Origin: Chiloscyllium plagiosum
Taxonomy: Eukaryota
Length of the DNA: 20,000 nt
Direction: 5' to 3'
Assembly: GCF_004010195.1 (NCBI RefSeq)
Contig: NC_057752.1
Coordinates: 12,204,517-12,224,516 of the forward strand
The notes below the pieces were generated by a model, which saw nothing but the letters and a program-made list of their open reading frames with translations, searched no databases and had not been told where the DNA came from. Positions 1,831-20,000 of this stretch are shown here, piece after piece. The first letter of the stretch is position 1; each line of letters opens with the position of its first letter. A program made the translations under genes and the position numbers.

Positions 1831-1911
1831 AACTATGTTTCATGATTTTCACAAGCAGCGCGTTGAGAATCTCACTAGATACCAGGGAAGTGCCAATTGA
1901 CAGGGATTAAC

Positions 1912-2096
1912 TGGGAGACAGTAAGGACTGCTGGAAGTCAGAGTCAATAGATGTGAAGCGGGAAGAGCATAGCAGGTCAGACAGTATCGGAGGAGCAGGA
2001 AAGTCAACGTTTCCGGCCAAAACTCTTTGTCAGGACTTTCATGCTCTTCAGATGTTGTCGGACCTGCTGTGCTCTCCCATCTTCACATCTATTGAC
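1912..2096. mobile_element. Fold-back PLE-terminus mini-element 1 with 16-bp TSD and a degenerate hammerhead
   Basis: ATTGACAGGGATTAAC occurs at 1896-1911 and 2091-2106. Inverted arms 1943-2005 and 2034-2096 (63 nt, ~10 mismatches). Loop on the minus strand reads CTGACAA-AGAGTTTTGGCCG-GAAACGTT. Homologous to 16553-16794. Confidence 0.85.
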
Positions 2097-3070
2097 AGGG
2101 ATTAACGCTTGATGGTACCAATCAATTCTTTAACATTCAGTCGCCTATTTTGTCAAACTCGCCAAACAAGCTAGACATCAGGAAAACTTTACATCGAAAC
2201 CAGAACAGATAACTGGGAACTTCAGCTCGCCGCTTGCTCTGGATGACCTCCATGTTGGACACTAGGCACCAACAGCTCATGGCAAGGTCCATTGAGACCA
2301 GCCATGTGCACCCCATATCCATGGACATTGGCATCCAACATGTGCCACCTTCTGAGAACCTGTATGGAATATTCCAATCCACTTACAGGAAGCTTCTGCA
2401 CTTTAATGCAGCACCTGCGATTATCATTGTAAGGTTGCAGCTCCGCTAATGAACTGGACAAGGTTGCATCTCCAGCCCCTTTGGTCACTGTCACTCACTT
2501 TGACCCTACTTCGATGCTAACAGCATCTCTTCCTTGCATTGTTTTGCCTTGCCCCTAAGCCAGAGATTCCAGGCTCATATCAGTTCTATCTTGCCATGCC
2601 ATTTAATGCATGCACAAAGCCAGGAAGATTGTCATTTTCATGAGCAGGCCTCCCCTCAGGGGTCCTAGTAGAGTAAGTCAAGGCAGCACAGAAACCAGTC
2701 CAGCCCCTGCTTGAGACAGTCAGACTCAAGATTCTCTCCTCATAACGGATAAAGAGCTGAACAATGGGTGGTCTTGACTCTTTCTACCCTACTGAGAGTT
2801 TTTTCCTCACGGAATGAGAAAGAGGCAGGTATAACGGAAAACAAAAGTTGTCTATCACTATTAGTGCAGGTGGAGAGGTGTCTCGAGCGAGTAAATAGAC
2901 AAGTCAGAGGGCATGCAGGATTAGTGGTGTTCAGGGTTGGAGTAAGTGAAGATGAATGGGGAAGATGTTGCAAGCAATAACAAGAATGGCAGAACATGAA
3001 TTTTGGTAGGTGGTGGGTATAGTAATAGAGATAGAGTGAGTGCGAGTTATCAAACAGAAGATGGTGGTAC

Positions 3071-4272: not shown

Positions 4273-5579
4273 TGCGCGCCAGCCGAAAAAGAACTACTGG
4301 ATGAATTTACCATGCCTGCCTGGAACTTTAGAGCAGCAGGGGATAATGTAATTGGGTGGGATGCAAAAATTCAGTTTCTGGTGGTGTTTACGTTTTGCTG
4401 TTAAATTCTCAGAGCTTTGGAGACAGGTCATTTTTGCATCTATTAGCATGCCATGAATATTTATTAACATCCCAGCCTGCTGCAATTGTGTTCAAAGTTG
4501 CAACCTTGTTTGGGAAAAAAAAACAGAAAACATGTACATTCACACACCCAACTACTGTATATATATGAGATCCACGCTCAGTGCCCTGCGCAGCCATACG
4601 CATACTCTCGACCTCTCCCTCCATCAGCACTGCACTCAACCTGTTTGTTGAGAACTGTCGACGTGACATCAGTCAATTTAACTTCTCTGCTACCCACCTC
4701 ACCTATTCAAACCCATCTCCCTGTAAACAGACTGCACTCCATGCTCTCAGACCCAACCCTGGCTTCATACTCAAGGCTGCAGCCAAGGGTGGTGTTGTTG
4801 TTGTTGCCTGATTGACTGACCTCTACATTGCACAGGGTCACAGACACCTCTTCCTATCTCCCCCTGATCATGACCCCACCATGGAAACCAGGCTATTGTG
4901 TTTACGATGGTCACTAATCTCATCTTATTTGGGGATCTCCTCCCCCACAGCCTCCAAGCTCATAGCCTGTTTCTACTTTCTTCCCAATTCCACAAACAGG
5001 ACTGCCCAGAAAGAACCATTGTTTATGCCTGCTTCTGCTCCACAAAACTTATTTCTTCCTTCCTTGACTCCGTTTTTCCTCTCCCCCTGTCCAGTCCCCC
5101 TCCACGTACATCCGCAATTCTTCTGATACTTTAAGTCAGTTTCAGAATTTTCAGTTTACAGCCTCCAGCTGCCTACTTTTCATCAGGGACCTAGAATCCC
5201 TCTACATGTCCATCCCCCATCAGTTTAGTCTTAGATCTTCACTTCTTCCTGGAAAGGAGGCTTGAACCGTCCTGAACCACCACCACCACCCTGTTACATC
5301 TAACTCATCTTCTCCTCATTTTGGACAACCTCTCATGTAACTCCTCTCACTTTCTTCAGATCAAAGGTATAGCCGTAGGTACCCACACGGCACCATTACA
5401 CCTGTCTCTTTGTGGAGTATGTGGCACATTCCTTGTTTTCAATGCTACTCAGGTCCTTTCTCCAGTACTTACTCCACACTTCTAGTGCTTCTTGTAAAGG
5501 TTCCATTCCATTCTCCCAGTTTCTCTGTTGCATCTATTCTGACGATGCCATCTTCTGCAGGGGTCCTTTGTAAAACTTG

Positions 5580-6178
5580 GTCACAGGCTGGGGGCATTGC
5601 TGGCTAGGTCAACATTTAATTGCCCACAGGGCAGTTTAAGGGGCTAACCATGTTGCTGTGGGTCTGGAGTCAAATGTAGGCCAGACCATGCAAAGCTGGC
5701 AGCTTTCCTCTCTCAAGGACATTAACGAATCAGGTGGGTTTTTACAACAATGGTCAACATTGTGGTTAGCACTGCTGCCTCACAGCACCAGGGTCCCAGG
5801 TTCGATTCTAGCCTCGGGTGACTTGTCTGTGTGGAGTTTGCACATTCTCCCCGTGTCTGCGTGGGTTTCCTCCAGGTGCTCCAGTTTCCTCCCATAGTCC
5901 AAAGATGTGCAGGTTAGGGTGAATTGGCCATGCTAAATTGCCCATAGTCTTAGGTGCATTAGTCAGAGGGAAATGGGTCTGGGTGGGTTACTCTTCGGAG
6001 GGTTGGTGTGAACTGGTCGGGCCGAATGGCCTGTTTCCACACTGTAGGGAATCTAATCATTAAACTCAATGGCAGATATTTGTCGAATTCAAATTCCACC
6101 ATCTGGAATGATGGGATTTGAACCCGGGTCCCCAGAACATTGGGTCCCTGGATTAACAATCTAGTAGCATTATCACGA
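5580..6178 (-). mobile_element. tRNA-derived SINE sharing its 3' tail with the host LINE at 325-1830; interrupted by an HE1-type SINE
   Basis: B-box GGTTCAAATCCC on the minus strand at 6113-6124. The tail (ATTGCCCA..., GCTGGCTAGG at ~5595-5630) resembles the LINE tail at ~340-375. Confidence 0.7.
5761..6058 (+). mobile_element. HE1-type V-SINE (elasmobranch tRNA-derived SINE)
   Basis: GTGGTTAGCACTGCTGCCTCACAGC head, B-box GGTTCGATTC at 5799, V-domain GTGTGGAGTTTGCACATTCTCCCCGTGTCTGCGTGGGTTTCCTCC, and CR1-like tail GGGCCGAATGGCCTGTTTCCACACTGTAGGGAATCT. Confidence 0.9.
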
Positions 6179-6524
6179 GACTGTCGCGGCCCCTTGAAAC
6201 ACCCACCTTTTTCCTCCACCAAGGATTCCCACCACCGTGGTTGACAAGGCTCTTAGCAGAGTCCGATCCATTTCCCACACTTCTGCTCTCTCCCCTCCAC
6301 TGATGGAGGACCACGGAGTCTCTCTTTCCACCCCACCAGCCTCCACGTCCAAAGGACCATAAGCCACCATCTCTGCAACCTCCAGCAGGATGCCAGCATC
6401 AGACACATATTCCCCTCCCCTCCCTTGTCAGCATTTTGCATTCTCTCTGGGCTCCATCTCCACCTGTCTGCTCACTCCTTTTCCCCCTCATTAGCATATT
6501 TACCACCTTTTCCTAGCTACGATC

Positions 6525-6563
6525 AGTCCTGAAGAAGGGTTACTGGACTCAAAGCATTAACTC
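6525..6563 (+). ncRNA. Degenerate type I hammerhead ribozyme at the PLE 3' end
   Basis: CTGAAGA (6529-6535)-A-GGGTT-ACTG-GACTC, but GAAACGT has decayed to AAAGCAT. Probably inactive. Confidence 0.55.
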
Positions 6564-6899
6564 TGCCTTCTCTCCACAGATGCTGCGAGATTTGCTAAGT
6601 TTCTCCAGCAATTTCTGTTTTTTGTTTCTCCAGAACCTTAGCCTGGGCCTCTGGATAACTAGTCCAGCAACATCACCAGTGTATCTCAACACAGTTTTAC
6701 GGTGCCAATGGTGCTACACTGATATTTGCAATGAAGTGACTGACACACTTTGAGCATGAGGCATATGATGGAGAGGCTCAATACCCAACCTCCTGTGTAA
6801 TAGTCCTCTACAGTGGCAACCTTACAATACTAACTCTCATTCATTGAAGCATGAGGTATTGAGTAGACAGTAGGATGTATACAGTTAGAGTGCAACGGA

Positions 6900-8468: not shown

Positions 8469-9558
8469 TGCGATACTGTAAACTTCAAACCTTTGATAAC
8501 TTAATGGATTGAAATAATAAACAATAACTGTCTGGTATAAACTGTTTCCCGAGATGAAAAGGGCAAAGAGAAACTGTTATAAAGGAATTAAAAGCATCAT
8601 GCAAATTAACCATCTCTGGGAAGAAACAACATAAACAATCAGTTTCCTGGGAGAGAAGAGATAACAACTGCGTGATAATCTGTTCCCTCATGACAAATGG
8701 ACAATTAAGTCTGCCAGCAGAAGGGATGTCCTGATGTAAAGGAGGTAAATGCAGGAACAGCTTTGCTTTAAATGGACAGCTAACCCCCAATATAACAAAG
8801 AACAGGGGAGCTACTTCTGATAAAGAAGACAAGCTCCAGACTTGAGGTTTCCAGAAATGTAATCAATGTTGAGGATGAAAAATTCTATTGAGTCATCAAT
8901 AATGTCACAGCACAAACTTGAAAGAGAGAAAATTACTTAAGAATCCAATACCAGAACAAGTCTGTAGCAGAACTTCAAAAGGACAACACTGCACAATCAT
9001 AGAATCCCTACAGTGTGAAAACAGACCCTTCGGCCTAACAAGTCCAGACTGATCCTCGAAAGAGTAACCCACCCAGACGCATTCCCCCTACTCTAATATC
9101 CCACATTTACCCATGACTAATGCACCTAACCTACACATCCCTAAACACTATGGGCAAGTTCCCATGACCAATCCACCCCAACCTGCTCATCTTTGAATTG
9201 TGGGAGGAAACCAGAGCACCCGGAGGAAACCCACAAAGACATGGAGAGAATGTACAAACTCCATACAGACAGTCGCCTGAGGCTGGAATCGAACCTGGGT
9301 CCCTAGCTGCCCATAAGGATTGAATTCTGGACACTTCTAGAGCCAGACTGCTTTCAAGTGGAATCCTAGCCAGATTCCACCATTAAATTGGGTAATAGCC
9401 AAGTTGGGTTGAGAGGATTAACCTACTTACTTGAGTGGTCTTATTTTAGTTGCTACATGCAATAAAGTTTAAATTGTTGTTTCAGCATTTGATGGTCTTT
9501 GAGGTTGTTTAATAAGTAGCTGAATTAAAGGTAACTTGTAGTGAGTTTACCTACAACA
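8469..9558 (+). mobile_element. Putative 3' LTR of the env-bearing element (interrupted by an HE1-type SINE)
   Basis: Polypurine tract AAAGAAGAGGGG (8456-8467) one base before TG (8469). AATAAA at 9461-9466. Ends ...CTACAACA (9558), where Gypsy pol sequence begins. Confidence 0.5.
8995..9310 (-). mobile_element. HE1-type V-SINE, slightly 5'-truncated
   Basis: Reverse complement of the same V-domain (GGAGGAAACCAGAGCACCCGGAGGAAACCCAC...AAACTCCATACAGACAGTCGCC). B-box at ~9286-9296. Tail CATAGAATCCCTACAGTGTG. Confidence 0.9.
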
Positions 9559-15905: not shown

Positions 15906-16552
15906 GACCCAGCAAGTCTGAGTCTATAGTGCTCCTCCCAAGACTTGGGCAAAGTGGGTCACCCACCCCTACCACACTCACCAAATCATTTAAAATAGTT
16001 TTTACTTAATGTAATTAGTTGTTTAGTATTGAATTTAAAGAATTTAATCTCCAGTAAAAATGACTAAAAGGAAGGGAGCTCTCAGCAGGCAGGAACTCCT
16101 CCCCAACCCTCTCCGGCTGCAGCAGAGGCGTCCACAGCCGCCCCGGGGGACTTACCTACGGTGGCGAGCCTCGTGGAAATAATCTCTAAACTCGATGTGA
16201 AGATTGACACTTTTATTGAAGAATCCCGAAGCCGATGGGACTCACTCTCAGCCACGCTGCAAAAGCACGTCTGAGACTTCAAGGAAATCGAGCGCCAAGT
16301 CGGAGGGGCAGAGCTAAAGACCGCGACCTCCGAAACTACAGCACAATCGGCTGTGGATCGGGTCCGACTCTCGAACAGCGAGTCCGGACCTTAGGGAATT
16401 ACATTGACGACCTTGAGGTCGTCGAAAAAGTATTTGTTTGCTGGGCCTTCCCGAACGGGAAGAGGAAGGCCATCTTACAGCGTTCCTTGAACAGTGGTTT
16501 CCACAGCTTTTAAATCTGGAGGCTGGATCAGGCCAGGTAAGGGTAGAATGGG

Positions 16553-16794
16553 AGAAAGTGAGGACTACAGATGCTGGAGATCAGAGCTGAAAATGTGTTG
16601 CTGGAAAAGCGCAGCAGGTCAGGCAGCATCCAAGGAGCAGGAGAATCGACGTTTTAGGCATAAGCCCTTCTTCAGGAATCATTCATTCAGGAATTCTTCA
16701 TTCCTGAAGAAGGGCTCATGCCCGAAACGTTGATTCTCCTGCTCCTTGGATGCTGCCTGACCTGCTGTGTTTTTCCAGCAACACATTTTCAGCT
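16553..16794. mobile_element. Fold-back PLE-terminus mini-element 2 with 15-bp TSD and hammerhead motifs on both strands
   Basis: TAAGGGTAGAATGGG occurs at 16538-16552 and 16794-16808. 95-nt inverted arms 16585-16679 and 16700-16794 (6 mismatches). Removing the insert and one TSD copy restores ORF1 (..EAGSGQVRVEWACRV..). Confidence 0.92.
16700..16735 (+). ncRNA. Minimal type I hammerhead ribozyme motif
   Basis: CTGAAGA (16704-16710)-A-GGGC-TCAT-GCCC-GAAA-C-GTT. Mirror copy on the minus strand at ~16644-16679 reads CTGAAGAAGGGCTTATGCCTAAAACGTC. Confidence 0.7.
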
Positions 16795-17177
16795 AAGGGT
16801 AGAATGGGCCTGCCGGGTTGCAATACACGGGCCCGGCTCAAACCAGCGCCCCCGCCCGGTCCTGTTCCGGCTGCAGAGCTACAAGGAGAGCCAGATACTC
16901 TTAGAAGCCTCCAGAAATCTTGGAAAAGATCCCCAAGCCATGATCCATAAAGGATCCAAGATCATGTTATTCCAGGTCTTTTCCCCAGCTCTGGTCCGAA
17001 AGAGGAAGGCATTTGATGAGGCGAAGAAGTGTTTAAGGAACTTAAATATTCAGTACTCCTTGCACTACCCAGCGATGCTACGCTTTAACCATGAAGGGTC
17101 TGTGTGTAACTTCGGATCGCCAGAAAAGGCCAAGGAATTTTTGGACTCTCTTAGATAAATTGTAAGAGATAATTGAT

Positions 17178-17768
17178 GTTGTTGTTGTTCTGTTCGCCGA
17201 GCTGGGAATTTGTGTTGCAGACGTTTCGTCCCCTGTCTAGGTGACATCCTCAGTGCTTGGGAGCCTCCTGTGAAGCGCTTCTGTGATCTTTCCTCCGGCA
17301 TTTGTAGTGGTTTGAATCTGCCGCTTCCGGTTGTCAGTTCCAGCTGTCCATTGCAGTGGTCGGTATAGGGTCTAGGTCGATGTGCTTATTGATTGAATCT
17401 GTGGATGAGTGCCATGCCTCTAGGAATTCCCTGGCTGTTCTCTGTTTGGCTTGTCCTATAATAGTAGTGTTGTCCCGGTTGAATTCATGTTGGTTGTCAT
17501 CTGTGTGTGTGGCTACTAAGGATAGCTGGTCGTGTCGTTTAGTGGCTAGTTGGTGTTCACGGATGCGGATCGTTAGCTGTCTTCCAGTTTGTCCTATGTA
17601 GTGTTTTGTGCAGTCCTTGCATGGGATTTTGTACACTACATTGGTTTTGCTCATGCTGAGTATCGGGTCCTTCGTTCTGGTGAGTTGTTGTCTGAGAGTG
17701 GCTGTTGGTTTGTGTGCTGTTATGAGTCCTAGTGGTCGCAGTAGTCTGGCTGTCAGTTCAGAAATGCT
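17178..17768 (-). mobile_element. 5'-truncated Penelope (Poseidon-type) element: linker, GIY-YIG endonuclease and 3' pLTR
   Basis: Frame open from ~17768: ISELTARLLRPLG...HKP..TLRQQL...KD, then NVVYKIPCKDCTKHYIGQTGR...RIREH...REFLEAWHS...IN. Hammerhead and AAC-repeat terminus downstream. Inserted in the L1 inter-ORF spacer. Confidence 0.93.
17217..17256 (-). ncRNA. Minimal type I hammerhead ribozyme, catalytic core intact
   Basis: Minus strand: GCA-CTGAGGA-T-GTCACCT-AGAC-AGGGGAC-GAAA-C-GTC-TGC. Stem I GCA/TGC, stem II GTC.CCT/AGG.GAC, palindromic ACGT stem III, GUC cleavage triplet. Confidence 0.85.
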
Positions 17769-18303
17769 CCATACATCCCCCCCCCCCTTATAGAAATATA
17801 TATATATATATAGGCCGAGGGGTCTAGTTAATGTTGGTGGGGGGAGGTGGTTACCTTATTCTATTTTACCTCTGTCTCTAAGAGCGGGGTTGTTTTCCCT
17901 TGTTATTTTGTATTATTATATTTAACTATTACTTGTTGAGGTTGTAATTTTAGAGTTATATATGTTTATACATGGTATTAATATTACCAAATATATCCAG
18001 GTGTTGGTGTGGGTGAGGGGATGGGGGTAGGGTGCTCACTGTTAACTCTAGCTCTGTAGTATATTTGAATTTTTTTCATCCTATTGAGGAGTGCCTGGGT
18101 CAAGGGTGGGGCACTGGTTGGGAGAGGATACGATGGACCTTGGGAACAAGGGGGAAACTCTCCATTTAAATATGTTTTATATTTTTTTTATTTAGAAATA
18201 GTATTTTATTATACTGTTGTGAGTGTATGAGAGAGCCTTTATTTTTGTGAATTTTATATGCTCTATGCTCAGGATGTTCTGGATGGGGTTTCCCCTCACG
18301 ATT

Positions 18304-20000
18304 ATGGTTGATCAGTCGGTTAAGTGGTGCACCTGGAATGTCAAGGGGAGTGATTCACCAATGAAAAGGAAGAAAATATTATCAAACCTCAAGAAAGAAA
18401 GGGTTGATATAGCTCTCCTACAGGAGACACACTTATTGGATAAAGAACACTTGAAATTACGACAGGGTGGATTTGATCAGGCCTNNNNNNNNNNNNNNNN
18501 NNNNNNNNNNNNNNNNNNNNNNNNNNNNNNNNNNNNNNNNNNNNNNNNNNNNNNNNNNNNNNNNNNNNNNNNNNNNNNNNNNNNNNNNNNNNNNNNNNNN
18601 NNNNNNNNNNNNNNNNNNNNNNNNNNNNNNNNNNNNNNNNNNNNNNNNNNNNNNNNNNNNNNNNNNNNNNNNNNNNNNNNNNNNNNNNNNNNNNNNNNNT
18701 CGATATGTTTTTTTGCCCCCTCGATTTTTTAAAATTCCATATCATCCTGTAAAATAGGCAGTATAGCAATTTCAGATCATGCTGCTGTATATATGGAAAT
18801 CAAGGTGAGGAACAATGAGACATCCCCCCGGCAATGGCGTATGGACCCCTTCCTGATGAAAGATAGTAAATTTGTAAAGTACTTCCCTCAAGAAATTAAA
18901 ACTTTTTTAGAAATTAATTTAGGTACGGCTAGCAACCCATCAATGATGTGGGAGACCATCAAAGCTTACGCGCGAGGTTTGATCATCTCATACTCAGCGA
19001 CCCAGAAAAAATTAAAGGGAGAACAAGAGTGTCTGCTCGAAGCTCGCTTAAAAGCGGCTGAAACAGCATATGCTGACAGACCTTCTATTATCAAATTACA
19101 AAGGATTACGGCCCTTAGGACAGCTCTAAACATCACGCTTACCCAAATGGCTAAGAGGGAAATATTATTTGCAAAACAAAGGTTATATGAATTTGGCGAT
19201 AAGCCAGGTAGATACTTAGCATTTCTTGCAAAGAAAAAGAAGGCCCCTCAAACTATTACGTCTATCAAGGAAAGTACGGGTATTCTGACTCATGATCATA
19301 AAAGGATTAACGCAATCTTTAGAAAATTTTATTCTGATTTATATAAATCGCAGGATTGTGAAGACAGGACTAGGAGGATGCAATCATTTTTTAAAAATGT
19401 GACCTTTCCGGACCTAACTCCGGAACAGGTATCGGTCTTGAATCTTCCCCTAACAATCCAAGAAATACTTGATGCAATCAAGCAACTTCAGAGCGGTAAG
19501 GCACCTGGCCCAGATGGCTTTCAAGCTGAATTCTATAAAGAATTTACAGGAATATTGGCTGGTCCACTTATGGACATGGAAAACTACTCATACAGTCAGG
19601 GCTATCTCCCGCCTTCGCTGAAAGAGGCAAATATCTCTCTTATCCTTAAAAAAGGAAAGGACCCAGAAGATTGCGCATCATACAGACCAATATCCTTGCT
19701 AAATGTAGATTTTAAAATCCTCTCTAAAACGTTAGCATTGAGGCTAGAAAAGGTATTGCCACATATCATAAAGGAGGATCAGATGGGATTTATTAAGGGC
19801 TGTAATCATCCAATAATGTTAGAAGGGTTTTGAATGTGATTCAAGCCTGCCATCAGGGAAAGATACCAGAAGTAGTAGTCTCATTAGATGCAGAAAAGGC
19901 ATTCGACAGGGTTGAATGGTCATATTTGTTTTACACATTGGAAAGGTTTGGCGTTGGAAAGGTGTTTACCAAATGGGTCTCAACACTGTATACTGATCCC
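18304..20000 (+). pseudogene. L1 ORF2p (APE endonuclease and reverse transcriptase), partial and disrupted
   Basis: [76 protein letters not shown]. In-frame stop at 18730-18732, frameshift near 19805, Ns at 18485-18699. Confidence 0.95.

Follow-up and report, generated by a model that had tools for sequence, protein, structure and literature searches.

An old fold-back insertion, probably derived from the tail end of a Penelope-like element, in the genome of Chiloscyllium plagiosum

We analyzed a 20,000-nucleotide stretch of Chiloscyllium plagiosum DNA (hereafter referred to as the window) and found that positions 1896-2106 very probably represent an old, dead, 5'-truncated insertion that derives from a Penelope-like element (PLE), of which it keeps the tail end, lying on the minus strand as a fold-back stub; its clade may be Neptune-like. 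The insertion itself (1912-2096) forms a hairpin that is bounded on both sides by 16-bp direct repeats. Read on the minus strand, its left part runs from a minimal hammerhead through the end of the pLTR into the tail, and an inverted pLTR without a tail is added to it. This copy thus combines an inverted, 5'-truncated pLTR beside a sense pLTR, a tail at one end only and a hammerhead in the pLTR, and it has no ORF. We lean towards an origin as a dead-on-arrival 3'-end insertion of an endonuclease-bearing PLE, with priming at both target strands. The architecture is already published, and the rule for the outer boundary already has a biochemical basis in the accessible text of Frangieh 2024 (PMC11167929).

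The putative target-site duplication occupies 1896-1911 on the left, which is crossed by orthologous contigs from two related species, and 2091-2106 on the right. The 16-bp direct repeat reported in the initial annotation proved to be exact, and it was the sole repeat of at least 8 nt between the two end regions searched. By arithmetic, the expectation for a 16-mer common to two 80-nt windows is about 1.5e-6; in a sampled control, at least 16 nt were common to 277 of 20,000 random window pairs, a sample that took in N runs and both elements described here. Next to the left repeat lies the unpaired PLE tail (1912-1942, minus strand), which measures 31 nt in this copy and, once a 6-nt deletion near 1928 is allowed for, about 37 nt in terms of the family. 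It is followed by the left arm (1943-2005, minus strand), identified by self-complementarity and homology to a second insertion in the window as the pLTR end of the tail-bearing, sense copy, by a decayed minimal type I hammerhead (2006-2037, minus strand), and by the right arm (2034-2096, plus strand), an inverted pLTR copy that lacks the tail and begins one base after the predicted cut. The arms are 63 nt long, as had been described, and 84% complementary, differing at 10 of 63 positions. The 6 bp said to be common to arm and repeat were also recovered: ATTGAC (2091-2096) forms the last six bases of the right arm and the first six of the repeat, a microhomology that the element shares with its target where the inverted arm has its outer end. 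At the inner junction, a 4-nt microhomology, GACT (2034-2037), is common to both copies and coincides with helix I of the hammerhead.

The window also holds a younger sister insertion from another subfamily (16538-16808, minus strand), which was delimited by homology, self-complementarity, the hammerhead descriptor and the frame of its L1 host. It comprises a 15-bp duplication (16538-16552 and 16794-16808), a tail (16553-16584), two arms that each carry a hammerhead (16585-16679 and 16700-16794) and a filler at the inner junction (about 16680-16697). The homology claimed between the two elements was confirmed by a match to 16549-16677 (72% over 130 nt, E 3e-15), and the claim that the element at 1896-2106 is the older one was borne out by the differences between arms over the homologous part (10/63 vs 2/63; Fisher's test, P = 0.03); with the whole arms of the sister, the contrast becomes 10/63 vs 6/95 (P = 0.06). 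The two duplications, 16 and 15 bp, are alike in length and unrelated in sequence. The filler of about 18 nt (16680-16697) is assembled from short stretches copied from both arm ends and resembles re-primed templated insertions. The sister interrupts L1 ORF1 (16380-17155), whose right half matches L1 ORF1p structures (E 0.004-0.008), and removal of the sister together with one repeat leaves the ORF1 frame open, 15 bp being a multiple of three. Since the left half of ORF1 gave no useful structure or Pfam match, the single copy of the repeat at the sister's empty site is deduced from the open frame only.

A one-sided tail was found in both copies, at about 33-37 nt in aligned terms. The unpaired extension of about 31-32 nt noted initially is therefore present in both elements, but its equal length is coincidental, the copy at 1912 measuring about 37 nt in family terms. 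In the alignment with the sister, the tail at 1912-1942 shows a 6-nt gap and extends 4 nt further, and the first base of the sister beyond its repeat, 16553, is placed opposite 1916 rather than 1912. Of 94 raw reads, 40 carry the additional bases TGCAGA after 1928, and loose ends at 1929 occur in 86, 100 and 98 contigs, with a consensus that holds the six bases. We accordingly put the tail at about 37 nt, because this copy lacks six family bases seen in reads and contigs. The 6-nt gap is common to the orthologues (0 gaps in the spanning contigs of both relatives). The loose-end consensus at 1929 (agreement 0.65-0.7) also suggests that the family sequence runs past the tail end, where it agrees with the left repeat in its final two bases. 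These lengths stand beside published PLE tails of 31 bp in the rotifer Pen2a and 34-37 bp in D. virilis (Arkhipova 2013, PMC3846280; Craig 2021, PMC8557442; Schostak 2008, PMC2377424), and the short 3' extension that the initial annotation cited for D. virilis Penelope corresponds in the literature to a 34-37-bp repeat at the pLTR 3' end. When pieces of the tail and hammerhead were folded, the z-score went no lower than -1.4 in any of the 4, and we claim no tail stem-loop.

We further examined where the inverted arms end. The two endpoints fall within 1 nt of each other, as first reported, if the shared bases are counted as arm; otherwise they lie 6 nt apart. The ambiguity of the arm end is 6 nt in the copy at 1896-2106 and 1 nt in the sister, and these two copies, the ones readable at base level on which the outer-boundary reading rests, support a boundary window of 0-6 nt. 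The proposal that stereotyped priming fixes the outer boundary is thereby supported, as known biology, although "within 1 nt" overstates this 0-6-nt window. Given the local base composition, a 6-nt match between target and element has a chance of 2.8e-4 at a fixed place, and for this reason we think it more likely that the match served as primer pairing; in that case, the start of synthesis would lie 6 nt further upstream than in the sister. We did not use depth steps at the arm ends to place breakpoints, because subfamily divergence confounds them. The 5'-ATT-3' cut preference of the lizard enzyme matches one of four putative nicks, and we do not claim it.

A descriptor for type I minimal hammerheads gave 4 matches in the window vs 2 in 10 shuffles, located in the copy at 1896-2106, in both arms of the sister and in a third family at 17253. 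For the first of these (2006-2037), the assignment draws on the descriptor scan, on family reads and on the layout given in the accessible part of Cervera and De la Pena 2014 (PMC4209133). C3 lies at 2033, the 5' strand of helix I is formed by 2034-2037, and the predicted cut falls between 2006 and 2005. The G8 position (2028) is mutated and helix II has decayed, while the ACGT palindrome is intact; the core base at 2028 is present in 198/248 and 198/237 family reads. The intact core and helices that mark an active hammerhead are thus missing from this copy. The right arm opens with 2034, which corresponds by homology to 2005, the base that directly follows the predicted cut. The left copy, too, includes 2034-2037, to judge from the listed family contigs, which align to 2035-2038, and from 55 contigs that break at 2037. 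This position is not independent evidence for cleavage, because the 3' strand of helix I starts there by definition. In the sister, the hammerhead is uncut in both arms, whose inner ends lie 4-6 nt upstream of C3. The inner junctions therefore differ between the two elements, as had been stated, lying at the cut site and helix I in one and in a filler upstream of the core in the other. The idea of a variable junction at the hammerhead fits all four inner ends in the window (one at the cut site, three 4-6 nt upstream of the core). Joints of the "opposite strands" type at 2001-2034 (8 of the best 15, one contig each) were set aside, as they coincide with family variants that break alignments. 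A search of Rfam at E up to 1 returned 6 matches, none of which came near its gathering score or was to a hammerhead model; a microRNA precursor was rejected on the same search (MIR2118, 25.8 bits vs a gathering score of 85, E 0.27).

To follow the insertion in other genomes we used sequencing runs, of which 17 of 24 listed include part of 1500-2600 and come from three organisms. Four of the 24 were aligned to 1790-2260 at 80% likeness, and the figures given here come from the top-ranking rows, beyond which there were a further 165 letter rows, 909 loose ends and 9,341 pieces. Contigs of one relative (organism B) cover 1790-1957 with 4 differences and 1971-2260 with 6, and those of another (organism C) cover 1790-1955 with 6 differences and 1984-2260 with 5, including one gap. 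These two related species share the inversion point as well as both outer junctions, and the insertion is present at the same site in three species. An empty allele was sought in the two relatives, and no joint of 1911 to 2107 was found among the best 15 of 16 joints. This absence is expected, because the relatives diverge from the window by 2.2% and 2.5% and the arms from each other by 16% (95% interval 8-27%). Three organism-C contigs join the left flank (to 1857, 1859 and 1910) to 2154-2165 without the element and with undetermined letters between, which hints that both flanks are part of one older host repeat. Each run has one paralogue contig that connects 1910 with 2154 in this way. In the read sets, both flanks (1838-1910 and 2126-2260) occur in a moderate number of copies, and at other places single contigs connect the two. 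Within 1790-2260, the orthologous contigs of organism C have a depth of 16-21 vs 24-43 for single paralogue contigs, and the bins of unique flank sequence are covered by one contig alone. This could mean that the locus is hemizygous (e.g., on a sex chromosome) or that the other haplotype was filtered out. The peak depth of the family was about 4,340 in 1,934 Mb of raw reads, which corresponds to at least about 2 arms per Mb. Scans with a family-copy pattern found 0 viral contigs and 0 prokaryote genomes, and 81 metagenome matches to the pattern were dropped as chance, with no family alignment exceeding 38 nt.

Comparison with known systems places the copy at 1896-2106 close to insertions of endonuclease-bearing PLEs, in which an inverted 5'-truncated copy stands head-to-head with a sense copy, flanked by a duplication and with a tail of 30-40 bp at one end (PMC3846280, PMC8557442, PMC2377424). 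It differs from those published insertions in having no ORF, in that both copies are cut at the hammerhead and the junction passes through helix I, and in its duplication, which is 15-16 bp in the window vs 8-10 bp in the rotifer examples. The hammerhead resembles the minimal metazoan PLE hammerheads of PMC4209133, which have a short helix I (4-5 bp), no helix III and a palindromic 15.2-16.2; in contrast to those, as far as the accessible text describes them, G8 is mutated here, helix II has decayed and the motif occurs in one arm only. The same text reports mostly solo truncated copies, together with opposite-strand pairs 100-700 bp apart. Non-LTR retrozymes (bioRxiv 10.64898/2026.07.22.740005) are likewise short and non-coding, with a type I hammerhead and a relation to the PLE pLTR, but the available part of that source describes head-to-tail tandem arrays, whereas 1896-2106 consists of just one pair, which is arranged head-to-head and has a tail and a duplication, and we rejected this assignment on that ground. 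As a single decayed copy of a published pattern, the insertion matters little alone and is useful as a data point; at least about 2 family arms per Mb would be enough to decide between models of its origin and to test the cut site as a mark of inner ends.

In the origin that we lean towards, where both target strands act as primers, 3' overhangs would be left by two nicks separated by 16 nt. The top-strand end would prime at the tail-end site, and its copy would extend past the hammerhead and stop about 4 nt upstream of the core, while the bottom-strand end, with its last 6 nt complementary to the RNA just before the tail, would prime at the pLTR-end site and copy 57-63 nt. The two cDNA ends would then be joined via the 4-nt complementarity of helix I, and the duplication would be filled in by repair. 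The outer boundary would thus be confined to a few-base window that the RT start site determines, with fine adjustment through primer-RNA pairing, and the inner boundary would be set anew at each event. A related process is the twin priming of LINE-1, where both target ends prime and produce an inversion within the duplication, with microhomology at the inner junction. The parts of a twin-primed LINE-1 copy different segments of one RNA, whereas here both arms represent the same segment, giving a palindrome. Our literature search found no paper that applies the twin-priming model to PLE inversions.

Several observations argue for priming at both strands, namely the duplications of similar length and unrelated sequence, the one-sided tail, the 6-nt match between primer and RNA, the ACGT hammerhead of the tail-bearing copy and the restoration of the L1 ORF1 frame on removal of the sister, whose filler, drawn from both arm ends, is as expected when two ends join. 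The accessible text of PMC11167929 on PAc, a Poseidon element of Anolis with a pLTR hammerhead, offers a close parallel: in vitro, the lizard protein nicks and extends both strands, and the tail lies between two internal RT start sites, with starts spread over ORF positions 111-118. That text uses the two sites without strand preference, and neither inversions nor inverted products are modelled in it. PAc also belongs to a different sequence family, and its initiation sites are described there as not homologous to the cut DNA, which speaks against the pairing step that the 6-nt match indicates here. A further point against dual priming is that both arms copy the same RNA segment, requiring two RNAs or re-copying.

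How the head-to-head arrangement arises has been addressed for PLEs by a proposal of self-priming in 2013 (PMC3846280) and by the demonstration of 2024 that both strands prime at two sites. Self-priming would here take the form of a snap-back, in which a cDNA or antisense template ending upstream of the core folds via helix I, is copied backwards and is joined to the target by the 6-nt microhomology. One RNA suffices for this and no cleavage is needed, the inner junction is an exact 4-bp fold-back closed by helix I, and self-priming from palindromes at inverted junctions is what PMC3846280 proposed. The arms moreover share a variant (1981/2058) that is rare among the reads at 2058, being missing from 142/155 and 187/197 of them, which a snap-back fits as well as dual priming does. 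It leaves unexplained, however, why copying stopped at the tail boundary in both copies, the sister matching 1 base there (4/5 with one mismatch), and the right arm of the sister has the family base just beyond the end of its left arm, although a single base is a weak indication. We regard a snap-back as possible but rather doubtful. The start of the right arm one base after the predicted cut (2034, the homologue of 2005) could alternatively reflect dual priming in which the inverted arm is a run-off copy of a self-cleaved RNA, so that the hammerhead cut sets the inner end. Minimal hammerheads are thought to act as dimers in the accessible part of PMC4209133, and a dimer is predicted for the lizard PLE protein in that of PMC11167929, but joining via helix I reaches the same base without any cut, an uncut site is traversed by the other three inner ends in the window, and the available text of PMC11167929 reports insertion without cleavage and no RNA reads that end at the cut site. 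We therefore judge the run-off version unlikely.

An extension of this idea, two-RNA, two-nick integration, would have a dimer-forming hammerhead hold the transcripts together and pairing assign strands to start sites, with some of the RNAs self-cleaved, in which case one cDNA would run off at the cut and pair with its partner via helix I; we hold it to be improbable as well. If it were true, thousands of fold-back copies would be evidence that PLE hammerheads cleave in vivo and influence integration, in contrast to the in vitro work, which in its accessible text finds no such role for cleavage (PMC11167929). An origin other than retrotransposition, whether as a MITE or fold-back DNA transposon, by later rearrangement of solo pLTRs or as an assembly artefact, would agree with the short, non-coding, hairpin-shaped insertion and with the fact that no empty allele was seen in two relatives. 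We consider it very improbable. On the tail side, a 31-nt unpaired end keeps the inverted repeats from being terminal, the interiors differ between the copies, and the duplications of 15-16 bp are unrelated in sequence; a TIR transposon was accordingly rejected, with no terminal inverted repeats at both ends and no fixed duplication or common interior. An assembly artefact is excluded because contigs of two other species, with 4-6 differences per contig, span the junctions.

Finally, we looked for a candidate parent and for other features in the window. A decayed long element on the plus strand (about 4560-6630) shows PLE-like RT motifs, including a DKG-like one, by eye, and ends in a hammerhead-like repeat (6523-6611) that is 71% alike over 89 nt to an arm of the sister. 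The long element is interrupted by a SINE-like insert. Searches of it gave no Pfam, NCBIfam or homologue match; the Atlas lead for it was DUF8422, with low recognition. Just after the L1 ORF1 stop, the minus strand holds the 3' end of a PLE family (17170-17760) different from that of the element at 1896-2106, with a GIY-YIG piece (17334-17855, E 0.0076) and a minimal hammerhead whose core is intact (C3 at 17253). An L1 ORF2 piece was found at about 18223-19833 (RVT_1, E 3.5e-8). Two copies of one repeat, which we take to be SINE-like, lie in opposite orientation at 5790-6055 and 9000-9304 and are 82-88% alike.
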